Source: Thermoplasmatota archaeon
GTDB lineage: Archaea > Thermoplasmatota > Penumbrarchaeia > Penumbrarchaeales > Penumbrarchaeaceae
Length of the DNA stretch: 64,000 bases
Direction: 5' to 3'
NCBI GenBank assembly: GCA_025457865.1
Contig: JALOTP010000001.1
Location: forward strand, 14,616 to 78,615
Each line of letters opens with the position of its first letter. The first letter of the stretch is position 1. The position numbers and the translations under genes were made by a program. Shown here one piece after another: positions 24,187 to 64,000 of the stretch. The notes under the pieces are model-generated. The model searched no databases and had not been told where the DNA came from. It saw only the letters and a program-made list of their open reading frames with translations.

Positions 24187-24627
24187 ATGACTGACAAGAG
24201 GAATTCGAAGTTCAGGGGGAAGAAGACCCACGGTCACGGGACCAAGGCCAGAAGGGGAGCGGGCAAGAGGGGCGGCAGGGGTATGGCAGGGGGCCACAAG
24301 CACCGACTTTTCCATATTCTCAAGTACTATGGAAAGGAATACTTCGGCAGGCACGGCTTCAAGAGGCCCCAATCGGTCGTCAAGGCGAACATAACCCTGA
24401 ACCTCTCTGACATCCGGGAGAACCTTCCGGTGTTCATGGAAGAGGGTGCCGCCAAGCGAAAAGGGGACAGCTATGATCTGGACCTCGGCGCCCTGGGGGT
24501 GAACAAGCTCCTGGGCGGAGGGACCCTAGGTGACCTAAAAGTGCATGTGTTCGCCCAGGCTGCGTCCCAGAAGGCCATAGAGAAGGTCGAGGCGTCAGGC
24601 GGAAGTGTGACCATCAAGGAGAACTAG
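24187..24627 (+). CDS. rpl15: 50S ribosomal protein uL15
   Basis: 'RGKKTHGHG', 'RGGRGMAG', 'FGRHGF', 'KLLGGG', 'KVEASGG'. Confidence 0.97.
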   Translation: MTDKRNSKFRGKKTHGHGTKARRGAGKRGGRGMAGGHKHRLFHILKYYGKEYFGRHGFKRPQSVVKANITLNLSDIRENLPVFMEEGAAKRKGDSYDLDLGALGVNKLLGGGTLGDLKVHVFAQAASQKAIEKVEASGGSVTIKEN

Positions 24628-24721
24628 GGAAGGGGTCTTACCTGTCATCAAATCAATGTTTTAATAGAAGAACGGTAATCAAGGGGCGCCCCACCAGACC
24701 ATACTGCACGGTGTGAACGAC

Positions 24722-26488
24722 ATGGCCGTAGAGAGAGACTACAGAAAGGCGATATGGGTCGTTATAGCCTACGTCGTAACTATGGTTATCCTCTACTTCT
24801 GGCCTGAGCCGAGGGACCTGAGCGAGTTCAGGGAGCTCTCGCTCTTCATCATCATCGCTCTAGGGGTAGGCATATGTTTCTTCCTCATCGGTATGATGGT
24901 GACCTATAATGGAGAGGAGAGCAAGCTCTACGGGCTGAAGTCCATTGCCAACAAGTGGCCTGCCATCAAGAAGCCAGAGGGTCATGTGAGGTTCCGCACT
25001 AAGATGATATGGACCTTCGGCATCCTCATCGTCTATTACTTCCTAAGCAACGTTTCGCTCTACGGATTGACCGGTGAGAGCCTTGATATATTCTCGGAGT
25101 TCAGGGCGATCCTGGCGGGGGCGAGCGGTTCTCTCATGCACCTTGGTATCGGCCCCATAGTCACAGGGTCCATCATAATGCAGCTCTTCACCGGGGCGAA
25201 GATCATCCAGCTGGACCTCAAGAAGGCCGAGGACAAGGCCATCTACCAGGGTGTCCAGAAGGTCCTGGTCCTCATCATGATATTCGTCGAGGCCATCCCC
25301 CAGGTCTATGGCTATCTGAAACCTTCGACCGACGGTTGGATGGGCGATATAGGCCCCGGATGGGCCGGAATGGTCATCATATTACAGCTTGTCTTCGGGT
25401 CCTACCTTGTGTTCCTCATGGACGAGATAGTCTCGAAATGGGGCATTGGGAGCGGCATTTCGATGTTCATCGCAGCCGGCGTTTCACAGGGGATCTTCCA
25501 GGGAACACTATCATGGCTGCCACTGGGACAGAAAACGGCAGAAAGGTACGGGCTGGATAATGTCGTCGGGGAGAACCTTGCGGGCTCAGTGCCCACAGGC
25601 ACACTTCCCAAGTCATGGTTCATAGTCACTCACCTGGGCAGTGGGCTAAGGGACCTCACAGGGGGTGGGTTCGAGTCCATCTTTCTAAGTCCACCGAACC
25701 CGCTCGTGGCCCTTCTTTCGACCATAGTGATCTTCTTCGTGGTAGCCTATGCAGAATCGACCCAGATAGAACTTCCTCTCTCCCACGCCAAGGCAAGGGG
25801 TGCAAGGGGAAGGTATCCCATAAGGCTCATCTATGCCTCGAACATCCCGGTGATATTGATGTCGGCCCTGCTCGCCAACATCAATATGTTCTCACTGCTC
25901 CTCTGGAGCCACAAGAGGCTTAGCACCATACCGATACTGGGCCACAATTCAAGGCTCGGTTATTTCGACCCTGGCTCCACCTCTCCGACAAAGGGGTTGG
26001 CATGGTACGTTTCCAGGGTGGACGGGCTCCAGAGCTGGCTCCTGCCTCTCATAAATTTCGAGAGGTACAGGGGATATGTCGGCGACCATTCATGGTGGGA
26101 CATCCTCATCCATCTGGTGGTCTATGTAGGATTGATGGTTGTGGGATCGGTCCTATTCGCCAAGTTCTGGATAGAGACCACGAACATGGGTCCTCAGGCG
26201 GTGGCCGAACAGATCGAGAACTCCGGGATGAGGATACCCGGTTTCAGAAGGGACCCGCGCGTCCTTAAAAGGGTCCTTGAGAGGTACATACCGACGGTCA
26301 CTGTCATTTCTGGTGCTTTCGTCGGCCTTCTTGCAGCTTTAGCTGACATGATCGGCACTGTTGGAGATACATCGGGTACGGGCGTCCTGCTCACTGTGGG
26401 CATTATCATAAGGCTCTACGAGGAGATAGGCAAGGAGCAGATGATGGAGATGCACCCGGTCCTCAGGGGCTTCTTCGGCCGCGAATGA
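24722..26488 (+). CDS. secY: Protein translocase subunit SecY with two extra N-terminal TM helices
   Basis: 'KPEGHV', 'LGIGPIVTGSII', 'GIGSGISMFIAAG', 'YASNIPVI', 'IPGFRRDP', 'GTGVLLTVGI'; its own TATA-like TTTTAATA lies upstream at about 24659. Confidence 0.97.
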   Translation: MAVERDYRKAIWVVIAYVVTMVILYFWPEPRDLSEFRELSLFIIIALGVGICFFLIGMMVTYNGEESKLYGLKSIANKWPAIKKPEGHVRFRTKMIWTFGILIVYYFLSNVSLYGLTGESLDIFSEFRAILAGASGSLMHLGIGPIVTGSIIMQLFTGAKIIQLDLKKAEDKAIYQGVQKVLVLIMIFVEAIPQVYGYLKPSTDGWMGDIGPGWAGMVIILQLVFGSYLVFLMDEIVSKWGIGSGISMFIAAGVSQGIFQGTLSWLPLGQKTAERYGLDNVVGENLAGSVPTGTLPKSWFIVTHLGSGLRDLTGGGFESIFLSPPNPLVALLSTIVIFFVVAYAESTQIELPLSHAKARGARGRYPIRLIYASNIPVILMSALLANINMFSLLLWSHKRLSTIPILGHNSRLGYFDPGSTSPTKGLAWYVSRVDGLQSWLLPLINFERYRGYVGDHSWWDILIHLVVYVGLMVVGSVLFAKFWIETTNMGPQAVAEQIENSGMRIPGFRRDPRVLKRVLERYIPTVTVISGAFVGLLAALADMIGTVGDTSGTGVLLTVGIIIRLYEEIGKEQMMEMHPVLRGFFGRE

Positions 26489-26552: not shown

Positions 26553-27698
26553 ATGTCCTCGGGAAAAAAGGGGGCTTTTCACCTGTCGGGAAGGACCGTT
26601 TTACCTTTCATTTGCACCATGATGATGGTCCTAACGGGCATATTACTCGTACCGGGCAAAGGAAGGGCCCCCTCCATAGACCCATACGAGATCCCACCGG
26701 GAAACCCCCTTTGGTTCCCGCTCGATGGTCTCGATGCCGAGGGAGAGGTGCTCCATTACACCATAACCTTCAAGAGGTCACAGAAGGATGGGGACCTCCA
26801 GAGGCCGATCGATTTCATCCTTCTAGAGCGCTCCATAGCGGACCAGAACCCCACCATAGAGATAGCTTTGCAGCTGGGTCTGGTCATGAAACCCAACATT
26901 TCCGAGAGGACAGTGGGCGAGTTCAAGAACGACAGGGACAGCCAGATAATGGCCCTCTTCTTCAACCATCTGCGTGAGGGCGATACCAGGGACTGGGACA
27001 ACGCATCTGTCAACATCCGGTTCGATTACTACATCACGGGGGAAAGGAAGGAAGAGAGCTCACCTCTCATTGTGATCGTTCTCGTTGTATTGGCCGTGAT
27101 GATACTAATATTGATGGTCATCCTACTTGTGAGGAGGCTCAAGCGAGGCAAGAAGGATTCGGTGACATTCTTCAGCCCGGAAACAGGTCCCTACTATGCA
27201 GTGAGGGCGCTCGTGGATTCTAGGGTATTCTACCTGGACCCGGACCAGTACTCCAACCTGTACTCGTCAGGCAGGTTGAACGAATTCGAGTTCTTGGGAA
27301 CATCTCCTAGGGTGGGTGGTATGATCATCCCTCCAGAAGGTCAGGAAGCGGTCCTGCTGGAACCCCAGGCCCTCCCGTCCATACCGCTGCAGGAGGCCTT
27401 CGTCACCGATGAACTGCTCATGTCAGATATGACGGCCCAGCCGGTTGCTGTCCCTATGGACTGGGGGGTAGCGGCCCAAGCAGGGTCTGGACCGACCGAT
27501 GCTGAGGGAGGTCAGGGAACGGGAGATACGAGGGATGGTTCAATGGCAGGGACCGTGGATCCGGCGGAGGGGCCTTCGGTCCCGGAAGCCCAGGGCGAAG
27601 GAAGGGCCGCCTTCGACCCCGAAGCCCCATCAGCAATTCCAGTGGATGGGGAAAGAACGGACCCACCATCGAACAGTGAACCATCTAAGACGTCCTGA
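26553..27698 (+). CDS. Hypothetical type I membrane protein with acidic/Pro-rich cytoplasmic tail
   Basis: Signal-like N-terminus, central TM 'PLIVIVLVVLAVMILILMVILLV-RRLKR', TATA CTTAAATA just upstream. Confidence 0.65.
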   Translation: MSSGKKGAFHLSGRTVLPFICTMMMVLTGILLVPGKGRAPSIDPYEIPPGNPLWFPLDGLDAEGEVLHYTITFKRSQKDGDLQRPIDFILLERSIADQNPTIEIALQLGLVMKPNISERTVGEFKNDRDSQIMALFFNHLREGDTRDWDNASVNIRFDYYITGERKEESSPLIVIVLVVLAVMILILMVILLVRRLKRGKKDSVTFFSPETGPYYAVRALVDSRVFYLDPDQYSNLYSSGRLNEFEFLGTSPRVGGMIIPPEGQEAVLLEPQALPSIPLQEAFVTDELLMSDMTAQPVAVPMDWGVAAQAGSGPTDAEGGQGTGDTRDGSMAGTVDPAEGPSVPEAQGEGRAAFDPEAPSAIPVDGERTDPPSNSEPSKTS

Positions 27699-27804: not shown

Positions 27805-30800
27805 ATGAACCGTCCTCTGGACCAACTGAAGATCTACATGCTGGCAGCCGTCATTCTCACAGGGATGCTTCTGACCGTTCTGACCGATGGACATTCTGGG
27901 ACCAACGGTCGGCCCGAAGCCTCCGGTCCCGAACCGTCGGTGATCGAAAAGGTCGGGGATTGGACCGTGACGACCATAGAGACAATCACGGACGATACTG
28001 TGACCTTGAAAGGTAACCTCACGATCAAAGGGACACTTGTCCTGGACAACACGACATTGGCATTGAACACCACTGTCCAGGATACCAAATGGGTAAGGGT
28101 CGAAGGAGGTGGGAAGCTCCGTTTGAGGAACGGCTCCATCCTTCGGGGCCTTCTCCATAGCAGGTACCATTTCCAGGCCCTGGCCTCTTCATCGGTGCAT
28201 ATCAACGGTTCCCAGGTCATGGACTGCGGGACCGATTCGGTCTCGGACCCCCAGAGGGGCATCTACAGTCTCAGCAACGACCTGATCATATACAACTCCA
28301 TGCTGACCAGGGGCCAAAACGGGATCCTTGTCGATGGGGGCTCCGCGAAGGTCATTGGGTCCTCTATCATTGGCATGGACGGGAACGGGATCGAGGTCGT
28401 GAACGGTGGGGACCTTCTCATTAGAGGGTCCAATATCACCTTTTGCGGCGGTTCGGGGTTGGAACTGGCATCATCATCAGCAAATATTACGAGCTCGACC
28501 CTGAAGGACTCGCAGAAGGCCGTCAGTGCCATGTCCAGCACTCTTCTGATGGAAGGGAGCCGATTCTCATCTAGGGGCATCCAAGCGTTGGTATCATCCT
28601 CATCATGGCTTTTCCTGAGAGACTGCTCACGGTCATCTGGGAGCGACCAGCTCGTACTTGACCTTCCGGTATCGGGCCCCTCCAAGGCCGAACTAGTCAA
28701 CACAACTCTGAACCAGTTCAGCGTACTGGACCCCAATGGCAGGATAACAGAGGCCTACAGGAAGGATGTCCAGATAACGACCAATGGTGGAAAGAGGGCT
28801 GACCAGGCCGAGGTGGAGATACGGGATAGGTACATGAGATTGGAGTTCCACGGGATAACACCACCTTCGGGCGAGCTCTTGGACATCAATGTAGTGTCCC
28901 ATATCACCAATATCTCCGGGAGGTATCCGATGGACCTTCACCAGCTCTGGGTGAGACTGGAGGGTGCAAGGCGGACCATGGATTTCGATTCGATGTCGGG
29001 CCATGTCTTCAATATGACCGTTCTCCTATCCGACCCCGAGGTCCTGATAGACCGACCGCTCAATGGGACCCATATCCCATCAAATGACATAACGGTCAGC
29101 GGCAGGGTCATAGATGTCCGACCGGTCTCGGCACTGTCCTACATCCTTGATGATGGGGACGAGGTCACCATTGCACCACAAAGCACCTTCTCGATCCCTC
29201 TGAACTTCCAGGAAGGCCCTCATGACATACTGATGATATGCATGAACGATGACGGACGTTTCGGAACGGCAAGGGCATCGTTCTTCACTGACACGATTGC
29301 CCCGGTCATAGAACTCTTGAACCCTTTGAACAATTCGGTCGTCAATACGACGACCGTCCTCTTCGCCGGCTCATGCGAACCTGAGGTCCGGTTCCTGATA
29401 GATGACGAGCTAGTACCCCATTCACATAGGACCTTCAGGCATTATGTAAGGCTTGGGGAGGGGTTTAACAGCATAACCTTGGAAGCCTGGGACCTGGCTG
29501 GGAATGGATTGTCAAAGGTGGTCCATGTCACGAGCGATACCACGGCACCGTTCATAGCCGTCATGACCCCACTTGACGGGTACAGGACCAAAGAAACCTC
29601 CATCACGATAAAAGGGACGACGAGCCTTGACACTGTGGGATTGACGGTGAACGGTTTCCAGGCCCAGCTGTCCGAAGGAACGTTCCAGGTTGTGATATCC
29701 GGTCTGATAGAGGGGGAGAACCCCATCCTGCTGACCGCAATTGACAGGGTGGGTTGGAGGACGACCAAGGAGCTAAAGGTCGTTGTCGATTCGACCCCGC
29801 CCATGCTTGTTCTGAGATCGTTCCCGGCCGTGACCAATAAGAGGGATATAGAGCTGAGCGGCATCGTTGACGAGGAGGCATCCGTAACCGTGAACGGTAT
29901 GGCAGTGGTATTGGAGGATGGGGGGTTCAGCATCTTAGTGGAGCTCTATCAGGGTCAGAACAGGGTTCTCGTTAGGGCGACCGATGCCGTCGGTAATACC
30001 GTTGAAAGAACAGCACAGATCGTGCTCGACCTAGAGGCCCCGGTCATAGAGAGGGTCCAACCACCGTCCGGGTCCTCGCTCAGGGGCAACGTGCTGCAGA
30101 TAACTGGTCAGGCTTTCGATGAGAACGGGATATCGAGCATGTCCGGGCGCCGGACAGGTGGTGCCTTTCAGACGCTCGATGGCATAGAGAGCTGGAGCTG
30201 GGTCATCGAGCTTACCTCAGGTCTGAACCAGCTGGAGGTACGGGCGGAGGACAGGGCTGGGAACGTGAGGACACTGGCATTGCAGTACACCCTTGAGGTC
30301 TCGGGTGTGACGGATAGGACCCCGCCAATCGTCACGATAGTGGACCCCAGGATGAACGCCTCACTTCGCAGCGGGGTGGTATGGGTCAAGGGGACCGCAA
30401 CTGACAATGTAGGTATCGGATCGGTCCAGCTTCGGGTCGGTGACGGGGAATGGACGACGGTCGAGGGGATGTTCAGGTGGTCCCTCAATGTCACACTCGC
30501 ACCCGGGTACAGGATAATCGAGGTCAGGGCCCTTGATACATCTGGGAACCAAGGCACCGATACGGTCAAGGTCCTGGTAACTGCCCCGAACGAAGAGGAT
30601 GTCAAGGACGAGGAGAATGGCCCAAAGGCCTGGATGTATGCCGTCCTGGTGTTCCTCCTGATCATGTTCATGGTCATGGCAGTATATCTCGTGTTGAGGC
30701 GGAAGGCCCTCAAACAGGAGATCGATCAGGAGAAAGTGGTTTCCGGAAGCGATAGGCACGGAAGGACGAGACACCCTCCCGTTGTTGGTGCCACAGAGAG

Positions 30801-30915
30801 GCGGCCGGGCCCCAGGGGAGACCCGAATCCCAGAAGGCCCCACCCTCCCGGAAGGACGCATCAAGGAAGTAGCAGACGATCCAAGGTCAGAGGACCGCCC
30901 TTCGATAGGGCTTGA
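27805..30915 (+). CDS. Surface protein: right-handed beta-helix (pectin-lyase/NosD-like), about 6 Ig-like repeats, TM helix, basic tail
   Basis: Beta-helix repeats 'GILVDGGSAKVIGSSI', 'GIEVVNGGDLLIRGSNI'; Ig repeats 'DTxAPxI...G.N.I.L.A.D.AGN'; C-terminal TM. Confidence 0.75.
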   Translation: MNRPLDQLKIYMLAAVILTGMLLTVLTDGHSGTNGRPEASGPEPSVIEKVGDWTVTTIETITDDTVTLKGNLTIKGTLVLDNTTLALNTTVQDTKWVRVEGGGKLRLRNGSILRGLLHSRYHFQALASSSVHINGSQVMDCGTDSVSDPQRGIYSLSNDLIIYNSMLTRGQNGILVDGGSAKVIGSSIIGMDGNGIEVVNGGDLLIRGSNITFCGGSGLELASSSANITSSTLKDSQKAVSAMSSTLLMEGSRFSSRGIQALVSSSSWLFLRDCSRSSGSDQLVLDLPVSGPSKAELVNTTLNQFSVLDPNGRITEAYRKDVQITTNGGKRADQAEVEIRDRYMRLEFHGITPPSGELLDINVVSHITNISGRYPMDLHQLWVRLEGARRTMDFDSMSGHVFNMTVLLSDPEVLIDRPLNGTHIPSNDITVSGRVIDVRPVSALSYILDDGDEVTIAPQSTFSIPLNFQEGPHDILMICMNDDGRFGTARASFFTDTIAPVIELLNPLNNSVVNTTTVLFAGSCEPEVRFLIDDELVPHSHRTFRHYVRLGEGFNSITLEAWDLAGNGLSKVVHVTSDTTAPFIAVMTPLDGYRTKETSITIKGTTSLDTVGLTVNGFQAQLSEGTFQVVISGLIEGENPILLTAIDRVGWRTTKELKVVVDSTPPMLVLRSFPAVTNKRDIELSGIVDEEASVTVNGMAVVLEDGGFSILVELYQGQNRVLVRATDAVGNTVERTAQIVLDLEAPVIERVQPPSGSSLRGNVLQITGQAFDENGISSMSGRRTGGAFQTLDGIESWSWVIELTSGLNQLEVRAEDRAGNVRTLALQYTLEVSGVTDRTPPIVTIVDPRMNASLRSGVVWVKGTATDNVGIGSVQLRVGDGEWTTVEGMFRWSLNVTLAPGYRIIEVRALDTSGNQGTDTVKVLVTAPNEEDVKDEENGPKAWMYAVLVFLLIMFMVMAVYLVLRRKALKQEIDQEKVVSGSDRHGRTRHPPVVGATERRPGPRGDPNPRRPHPPGRTHQGSSRRSKVRGPPFDRA

Positions 30916-62224: not shown

Positions 62225-63442
62225 ATGAAGTCAATAATCAAGGGAGTCCTCGAGCGCGAGGAGCTAAGGACCAAGGGGTTATCCCCTCAGCCAGCGGCCC
62301 CGGCCGCTCCGGCGCGACCAGCCGCCTCTAACGGTGGATTCGTTCAGAGAATGACAAAGGAGACTAGGGTCCAGGCCACTGAGAAGGTCTCTGTGGACGG
62401 ACCGTCGGGTGCCAATCCCGAAGATGAGGAACTGAGGAGGGTCCTTGCAGGCCTCAGGACCAATATCAAGATCGTCGGCTGCGGTGGTGCTGGGAGCAAC
62501 ACCGTTAACAGGGTCGTGGAGGAAGGGGTGGTAGGCGCCGATATCTACGCGATCAATACGGATGCACAGCATTTGCTCACCATCCATTCACCTCACAAGA
62601 TCCTCATAGGCAGGAGGGCTACAAGGGGTCTCGGTGCTGGTTCCGTCCCTCAGATCGGGACAGAGGCCGCCAGGGAGGCAGAGGATGAGATAAGGGCAGC
62701 CCTTGTCAACTCGGATATCGTCTTCGTTACCTGCGGTCTCGGAGGCGGAACGGGTACCGGTTCAGCACCTGAGGTCGCAAGGATCGCCAGGGAGCTTGGG
62801 GCTCTCACCATCGCCATCGTCACCCAGCCCTTCAATGCGGAGGGAGTGGTGAGGATGCAGAACGCAGAGTATGGTCTGGACAAGCTCCAGGAGCACACCG
62901 ACACCGTGATAGTCATCCCCAATGACAAGCTCCTTGAGATAGTCCCCAGACTTCCACTGAACGCTGCCTTCAAGGTGGCCGATGAGATCCTGATGAGGTC
63001 CATAAAGGGCATCACCGAGATAATCACCAAGGTGGGTCTGGTCAACCTTGACTTCGCTGACCTTAAGACCATCATGAAGGGCGGCGGGGTCGCTATGATC
63101 GGAATAGGTGAGTCCGATGACGACGACAGGGCTATGAAGGCTGTGAATGCCGCACTTGACTCCCCCCTTCTCGAAGTTGAGATCCAGGACGCGACCGGCG
63201 CACTGGTCAACGTCTCTGGAGGAGAGAACATGACCGTGTCCGAAGCGGAGCTCGTAGCATCAGAGATCCACAAGAGGGTAAATCCGATGGCAAGGATCAT
63301 CTGGGGTGCCCAGATAGACCCGGAGCTTAGGGATACCATCAGGGTCATGCTGGTCATAACCGGTGTGAAGTCCAAACAGATATTCGGAAAATCGATAAGG
63401 AAGACGGGTGAATCCCGGTTCGGAATCGACTTCATCCGGTAG
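62225..63442 (+). CDS. ftsZ: Cell division protein FtsZ (FtsZ1 type by context)
   Basis: 'VGCGGAGSN', 'GGGTGTG', 'LVNLDFAD'; followed by secE-spt5. Confidence 0.98.
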
Positions 63443-63455
63443 AAGGGTGTTCCCG

Positions 63456-63716
63456 ATGGATATCCTGCGGAGCACATGGTCCAAGAGCTATGAATGGACC
63501 AAGCATTGGCAGATCGTACTGGAAGCCAAGGTCAAGCATGTCGGCCGCGGCCAGTATGGTAGGGTATTGAAGATGGCCAGGAAACCGACCAGCGAGGAAT
63601 ATTCCAAGACTATCATAGTCACAGGGATAGGGATAGCAATCATCGGGGCCCTTGGTTTCATCATATACCTGATCTGGGAGTATCTCCCGGACGTGGTAGA
63701 TTGGTTCGGGGTCTGA
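63456..63716 (+). CDS. secE: Protein translocase subunit SecE/Sec61-gamma
   Basis: '[14 protein letters not shown]...[15 protein letters not shown]'. Confidence 0.93.
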
Positions 63717-63752
63717 GGACCCTGCTTCGAATGTTGATGGAGGACGATCGAG

Positions 63753-64000
63753 ATGTCCACTGAAGAGCAGACGGCCCCTGCAGACACAGGTTCGGAGTTC
63801 CCCCGGACCATCTTTGCGATAAAGACAGCCCTGGGCCACGAGAAGACCGTGGCTGAGAACCTTGGCAACAAGGCCAAGAGGAAGGGGGCGCAGATAACCT
63901 CTATCATCGCACCGACAAAGCTCCGAGGGTATGTTCTCATAGAGGGTGTGAAGAACGAAAAGGCCATTGAGGAGCTCATCAAAGGGATGCAATATGTCCA
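63753..64000 (+). CDS. spt5: Transcription elongation factor Spt5/NusG (5' part; truncated by the window end)
   Basis: Hand translation '...IFAIKTALGHEKTVA...LRGYVLIEG...'; follows secE. Confidence 0.93.
   Translation, partial: MSTEEQTAPADTGSEFPRTIFAIKTALGHEKTVAENLGNKAKRKGAQITSIIAPTKLRGYVLIEGVKNEKAIEELIKGMQYV

Follow-up and report, generated by a model that had tools for sequence, protein, structure and literature searches.

The SecY/Sec61-alpha protein forms a protein-export channel of ten membrane helices and is found in all domains of life. In archaea its gene is usually located after the genes of the ribosomal proteins uL30 and uL15. SecG, a bacterial subunit with two membrane helices peripheral to the N-terminal half of SecY, is dispensable. 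Archaeal SecY has been described as a protein with 10 transmembrane (TM) helices (review PMC6098224), and no description of a 12-helix SecY was found either in this review or in the open-access full-text literature searched.

In the present study, a stretch of 64,000 nucleotides of the genome of a Thermoplasmatota archaeon (hereafter, the window) was analysed. The SecY encoded in it is similar to the canonical SecY/Sec61-alpha proteins (M. jannaschii SecYE-beta, 1RHZ/1RH5; P. furiosus, 3MP7) in possessing the SecY and Plug domains and the clamshell architecture, in the location of the gene after uL30-uL15 and in the presence of the partners SecE and Sec61-beta. It differs from them in that residues 1-63, containing two helices, precede the start of every solved chain and in that the core is about 60-90 residues longer. 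The hairpin-less SecYs of sister lineages (Methanomassiliicoccales and the families labelled f3 and f8) are 58-69% identical to it in the core and are encoded in the same operon context, but have neither the hydrophobic hairpin upstream of the SKLYG motif nor Gly at residue 71. Unlike the hairpin, SecG is a separate polypeptide, is confined to bacteria and has no sequence similarity to it; moreover, the reported topology of SecG is the opposite one, with the termini outside, whereas the hairpin is predicted to have both ends in the cytoplasm (N-in/C-in) and is covalently joined to TM1. Closer by phylum are the Poseidoniales (MGII), where hydrophobic helices have also been added to the N-terminus of SecY, although four of them rather than two.

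Organisation of the secY gene

The secY open reading frame occupies positions 24722-26488 of the forward strand and encodes 588 amino acids (coding part 24722-26485, stop codon 26486-26488). It closes a row of ribosomal genes: Pfam comparison of the upstream ORFs gave the order L19e, L18, S5, L30, L15, SecY, which corresponds to the end of the ribosomal spc cluster, and the last gene before secY is that of uL15 (24187-24627, forward strand, PF00828). An earlier sequence-only reading had noticed 63 in-frame residues with two hydrophobic strings ahead of the usual SecY start. Both observations were accurate: exactly 63 in-frame codons (24722-24910, forward strand) head the ORF before the canonical SecY N-terminus, and the two strings are present; their highest Kyte-Doolittle averages over 19 residues are 2.10 and 2.83. 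The canonical core, comprising the Plug domain, the 10 TM helices and the stop codon, extends from 24911 to 26488 on the same strand. Its SecY domain (PF00344, residues 137-566) scores 244.2 bits at a Pfam gathering cut-off of 32.2, and its Plug domain (PF10559, residues 103-136, 39.5 bits) lies between TM1 and TM2. Residues 1-63 produced no significant Pfam match, the best being 8xMP, whose 15 bits fall short of the cut-off of 30.

Hydropathy, topology and predicted fold of the extension

Helix 1 of the extension (residues 10-27, 24749-24802, forward strand) has its hydropathy maximum at residues 10-28, which equals or exceeds the level of the core helices that are the most hydrophobic; the maximum of helix 2 (residues 40-60, 24839-24901, forward strand), at residues 42-60, exceeds that of every core helix. 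A conserved motif, R5-(N/D)6...A10-x-P/W12, is placed just ahead of helix 1 and at its start, and helix 2 is followed by the conserved pair (S/T)61-Y62. Three K/R residues precede helix 1, the loop between the helices is net acidic, and eight K/R residues follow helix 2. This distribution of charges agrees with an N-in/C-in arrangement, in which the topology of the core would not be altered; helix 1 is predicted to cross from the cytoplasm to the outside and helix 2 to return.

The AlphaFold2 model of SecY, built on a 45-sequence alignment (mean pLDDT 69.5, pTM 0.72), contains helices at residues 8-26 and 36-60 with block-mean pLDDT values of 76-92. Foldseek matched the model to chain 1RH5_A with an E value of 1.8e-20, and VIA-align superposed 407 of 410 residues on the same chain (Z 30.0, rmsd 3.4) over the model range 70-576. 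Residues 1-2 of the solved SecY/Sec61-alpha chains fall on model residues 64-70, and every solved homologue thus starts only after the extension. The ten-helix clamshell fold is present; with two helices upstream, the protein has more than exactly 10 TM helices and does not start at the amphipathic helix before TM1. This departure is a variant, and the protein stays within the SecY/Sec61-alpha family. The proposal of a 12-TM SecY with a two-helix N-terminal module is in line with the hydropathy, the AlphaFold2 helices and the superposition of solved chains only past residue 63, which together support a 12-helix alpha subunit consisting of a predicted N-in/C-in hairpin and the 10-helix core.

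Start codon and translation of the extension

The gene had been said to possess its own TATA element. A TATA-like block, TTTAATAGAAGAAC (24660-24673, forward strand), located about 50-62 nt before the ATG, is indeed present and may function as a promoter element. It recurs nearly letter for letter and at an equal distance in 18 of 18 family relatives, in which the uL15-secY spacer otherwise diverges. A Shine-Dalgarno (SD)-like sequence, CGGTGT (24709-24714, forward strand), ends 7-8 nt before the ATG and would be the putative ribosome-binding site; its CGGTG part is conserved in 17 of the 18 relatives and the full hexamer in 15. A further spacer element, GGGG-N-GC...CTGTCCAG, is conserved among the relatives between the two blocks (24675-24708); it may mark the region of transcription initiation or be an element of the 5' UTR.

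The long SecY form starts with the codon at 24722-24724 (forward strand), which is the first ATG past the upstream in-frame stop both here and in most relatives. The N-terminus MA(V/I)ER(D/N)Y is conserved directly after this ATG, and the reading frame of most loci stays open for only 0-29 codons ahead of the conserved first Met. The GTG at 24713 was rejected as a start codon, since it falls within the conserved SD-like block and the first residue of the homologues is the Met of MA(V/I)ER. An SD-like GGTG (24710-24713) precedes the ATG at 24722, whereas the internal ATGs (24893-24898) are preceded only by a bare GGT (24890-24892); the presence of an SD-like sequence ahead of the upstream ATG can be added to the earlier statement that the internal Mets have none. 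The Met residues 58 and 59 are confined to the archaeon's own family, other lineages having YLGLSY, YLIVSY and similar sequences in this place, and in many hairpin-bearing lineages Met is lacking from the stretch that joins the hairpin to the essential N-terminal region.

In pairwise Nei-Gojobori comparisons (41 unsaturated pairs), the extension has a median omega of 0.16 and an amino-acid identity of 61%, the corresponding values of the core being 0.06 and 86%. The frame is open, and the extension is homologous and under purifying selection across the phylum. This indicates that the extension is real and not a product of chance and, judged from the nucleotide and protein sequences, it is a coding and translated part of SecY.

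Distribution among Thermoplasmatota

In the databases, the 588-aa query has over 100 homologues of 567-589 aa that align along its full length. A profile constructed from 31 extensions (A2), with invariant R5 and Y62 and the motif (E/P)-R-(N/D)-x3-A-(I/V)-P, was compared with 401 Thermoplasmatota genomes and found matches in about 77 of them, with E values of 1e-12 to 1e-23. Apart from two contig-end fragments, the matches always head a SecY frame of 569-616 codons. They belong to families f1, f2, f4-f7, f9, f26, f28, f36 and f41, and a weaker match to a SecY frame was found in f29 (E 1.5e-5). Contrary to the possibility that the extension is not conserved, a homologous hairpin is thus carried by SecY in about 12 sampled families of the phylum. 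The carriers include Thermoplasma acidophilum, T. volcanium and Ferroplasma (f41), marine group III (MGIII) and the soil clade Ca. Lutacidiplasma. For Thermoplasma and Ferroplasma, the long ORF is already annotated in RefSeq (586 aa).

Older database entries start inside the hairpin, namely those of T. acidophilum (CAC12372/Q9HIT0, 535 aa) and T. volcanium (BAB59494/Q97BV3, 565 aa). The starts of Q9HIT0 and Q97BV3 look like mis-called start codons, and both entries can be flagged as cutting the hairpin.

The hairpin is absent from Methanomassiliicoccales and many other families, where SecY starts directly with M-A-E-E-K-K-S-x-L-Y. Upstream of this start, the hairpin-less loci have 1-57 open codons (in many cases fewer than 20) with no hydrophobic segment, a length insufficient for a hairpin, compared with at least 59 in the hairpin forms. 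The lineages with a conserved 12-helix SecY form a group of archaea that includes the cultured Thermoplasma and Ferroplasma and probably Aciduliprofundum-like organisms, and the 12-helix form is relevant to the modelling and purification of archaeal translocons from the carrier organisms.

Gain and loss of the hairpin

A FastTree phylogeny of 134 SecY cores was used to follow the history of the extension, with the hairpin columns excluded, the states defined as 0, 2 or 4 helices and the root not inferred. Seven state changes are needed on this tree, at least four of them forced by well-supported branches, compared with about 47 for shuffled labels. The hairpin-less families f3 and f8 are nested within hairpin-bearing members of their own class (Penumbrarchaeia), and the Methanomassiliicoccales, which lack the hairpin, cluster with Thermoplasmatales and soil clades that carry it. 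As the hairpins are homologous, the simplest reading of the sequences would be a single origin within Thermoplasmatota with several later clean deletions; transfer between lineages may also have shaped the distribution. The repeated clean loss suggests a useful but dispensable built-in accessory and not a replacement of SecE or Sec61-beta, but it also fits a nearly neutral add-on. The carriers and non-carriers make up a natural series of gain and loss in which the contribution of peripheral helices to a translocon can be studied.

Partner subunits and free-standing homologues

The window also contains a gene for SecE (Sec61-gamma), a protein with one TM helix (63456-63716, forward strand), with a PF00584 match at 63564-63686 (26 bits, above the cut-off). 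Its exact start is uncertain, several in-frame candidates being present from 63408 to about 63530. The gene is the middle one of three adjacent genes at 62225-63998, between an ftsZ-like and a nusG/spt5-like gene. Sec61-beta is encoded in the same genome (PF03911 on contig C94, above the cut-off). It was detected above the cut-off in all ten genomes tested, five hairpin-bearing and five hairpin-less.

The sequence-only reading had also suggested that the extension could replace a separate partner subunit and that the 63 residues should be searched for free-standing homologues. A profile search of 1.84 billion representative proteins yielded 17 matches, none of them a free-standing hairpin: 15 are N-terminal SecY fragments or assembly-garbled pieces, one is a full-length SecY (P0049), and one is a marginal, unrelated membrane protein (P0176, E 8.4e-4). 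The garbled or frameshifted pieces continue into SKLYGLKP. In the 401 Thermoplasmatota genomes, hairpin-less ones included, only weak hydrophobic noise was found outside SecY, and the Atlas search with the extension gave no usable match. Residues 1-63 have no detectable homology to SecG, Sec61-beta or the extra helices of SecE that would point to an origin from one of these.

ORFs of 90-98 codons matching the hairpin profile weakly (E 0.006-0.009) occur in three genomes of family f14 (G185:C1:1236523-1236639, G161:C30:6247-6384 and G212:C113:7896-8012). They probably represent hydrophobic noise too, though a recurring one.

Conserved residues of the hairpin and the adjoining core

R5 and Y62 are invariant in the two-helix extensions. 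Conservation specific to the hairpin is found only at its cytoplasmic ends, at R5, N/D6, A10 and P/W12 on one side and at F53, L55, L/M58, S/T61 and Y62 on the other. The outer end of helix 1 carries an aromatic belt (Y/W25, W27). In the buried stretches, only the hydrophobicity is kept, with no conserved helix face (helical conservation moments 0.08 and 0.11). Beyond the hairpin, the surface helix next to it is conserved at G64 and G71.

The strongest difference in the core, by far, concerns residue 71 in the SKLYG-LKP surface helix (codon 24932-24934, forward strand). It is Gly in 62 of 62 hairpin-bearing SecYs and is replaced in 68 of 69 hairpin-less ones, with K, R, A or Y in f3, f8 and Methanomassiliicoccales. 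About 3.9 of 4 independent contrasts agree in the direction of the change (sign test p 0.125), but four are too few for significance. The site belongs to the cytoplasmic N-terminal surface helix and not to a gate helix. In the independent contrasts, G64 and K68 follow the hairpin state in part. G570, another candidate column, was discarded, as it showed no association in these contrasts and carries phylogenetic signal only.

Among the 62 hairpin-bearing and 69 hairpin-less cores, no column on the TM surface of the core tracks the hairpin, which implies either that the hairpin docks loosely or that the test is insensitive.

Proposed role of the hairpin

It is probable that the hairpin is a translated, dispensable built-in accessory which acts as a lipid-exposed peripheral anchor of the N-terminal surface helix of SecY. 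The restriction of conservation to the interface, together with the coupling to G71, points to this role. The two very hydrophobic helices would form the N-in/C-in hairpin with the orientation of the ten-helix core unchanged, and the hairpin, exposed for the most part to lipid, would be placed peripherally to the N-terminal half of SecY. The conserved cytoplasmic-face cluster may pack against the N-terminal surface helix, and in this way the hairpin would pin and shape this conserved amphipathic helix at the cytoplasmic face, with G71 permitting the tight packing or the turn that pinning needs. The mechanism of translocation itself would stay canonical.

Other explanations differ in how much of this pattern they cover. 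The two helices might serve the biogenesis of SecY itself, as a strong N-terminal signal-anchor aiding recognition by SRP and membrane insertion. The own TM1 of SecY is only moderately hydrophobic, and the best 19-residue hydropathy of the extension averages 2.49 over 100 loci, while the means of the core helices are at most 2.0. The hydropathy of TM1 is 1.49 in the two-helix forms, 1.21 in the four-helix forms and 1.68 in the forms with no extra helices, and three of four sister contrasts agree with this trend. However, the differences in TM1 are within one standard deviation, TM2 and TM5 shift similarly, and the trend is too weak to be decisive; the hairpin-less relatives insert SecY without a hairpin, and the invariant R5 and Y62 and the coupling to G71 are left unexplained. 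A leader function of this kind seems unlikely. A position at the lateral gate, or docking of a lineage-specific partner, with an altered exit of membrane proteins as the result, appears quite improbable, and the same applies to the candidates for such a partner (an Oxa1/YidC-like insertase, SecDF or oligosaccharyltransferase). It is true that a 30-residue tether (64-90) would allow the hairpin to reach any face of the channel, that eukaryotic translocons ring Sec61 with helices of other proteins (structure titles 7tm3, 8b5l and 8rjb) and that a partner could bind to the conserved motif at the cytoplasmic face. Nevertheless, no column of TM2, TM3, TM7 or TM8 follows the hairpin state when phylogeny is considered, no partner was identified, and the membrane-embedded residues have no conserved face.

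Two further explanations would remove the hairpin from the translocon or change its origin. If translation started at M58/M59, or if helix 1 were a cleaved signal peptide, the mature protein would have 10 or 11 helices. The internal starts chosen for the older T. acidophilum and T. volcanium entries and the positively charged N-region ahead of helix 1 agree with this. Purifying selection, the invariant R5 and Y62 and the conserved SD-like element before the upstream ATG speak for translation of the whole extension, as does the lack of Met at positions 58/59 in most carrier lineages, where the alternative start fails; the internal ATGs have only the bare GGT, and no small-x-small cleavage motif follows helix 1 when the sequence is read by eye. 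Loss of the extension from the mature protein is very improbable. The idea that the fusion replaced a separate subunit draws on the resemblance of two peripheral helices to bacterial SecG. It is largely refuted and can be given hardly any credence: both SecE and Sec61-beta are encoded here, Sec61-beta is found with either hairpin state, free-standing homologues are missing from the hairpin-less genomes and from the large protein set alike, and no Pfam family was matched significantly.

A bolder reading, which we consider rather doubtful, would make the hairpin a functional module of an eleventh and a twelfth helix, with a lineage-specific docking or gating site formed at the cytoplasmic face by the R5/Y62/G71 cluster. 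If this were true, the repeated clean loss accompanied by the replacement of G71 would amount to a natural experiment in adding accessory helices to the universal channel and removing them. Thermoplasma acidophilum, one of the classic organisms of structural work, would allow a direct test of such a role.

Other features of SecY and its neighbourhood

The SecYs of Poseidoniales (643-648 aa, P0146-P0148) have four hydrophobic helices before the core. Homology of this extension to the two-helix hairpin was not detected by the two-helix profile, and the four-helix form may be an independent, second N-terminal expansion or a strongly diverged acquisition. The extra length of the core in comparison with the solved archaeal SecYs (residues about 264-326 and 397-457) falls mainly in long TM5/TM6 and TM7/TM8 loops, which are conserved across Thermoplasmatota, the hairpin-less forms included. 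Downstream of secY, no adenylate kinase gene is present; instead, the region 26553-27698 encodes a 381-aa single-pass membrane protein with no Pfam family, and the next gene (27805-30915) encodes a probable surface protein of 1036 aa with beta-helix, Glucodextran_B and Big domains and a C-terminal TM helix.
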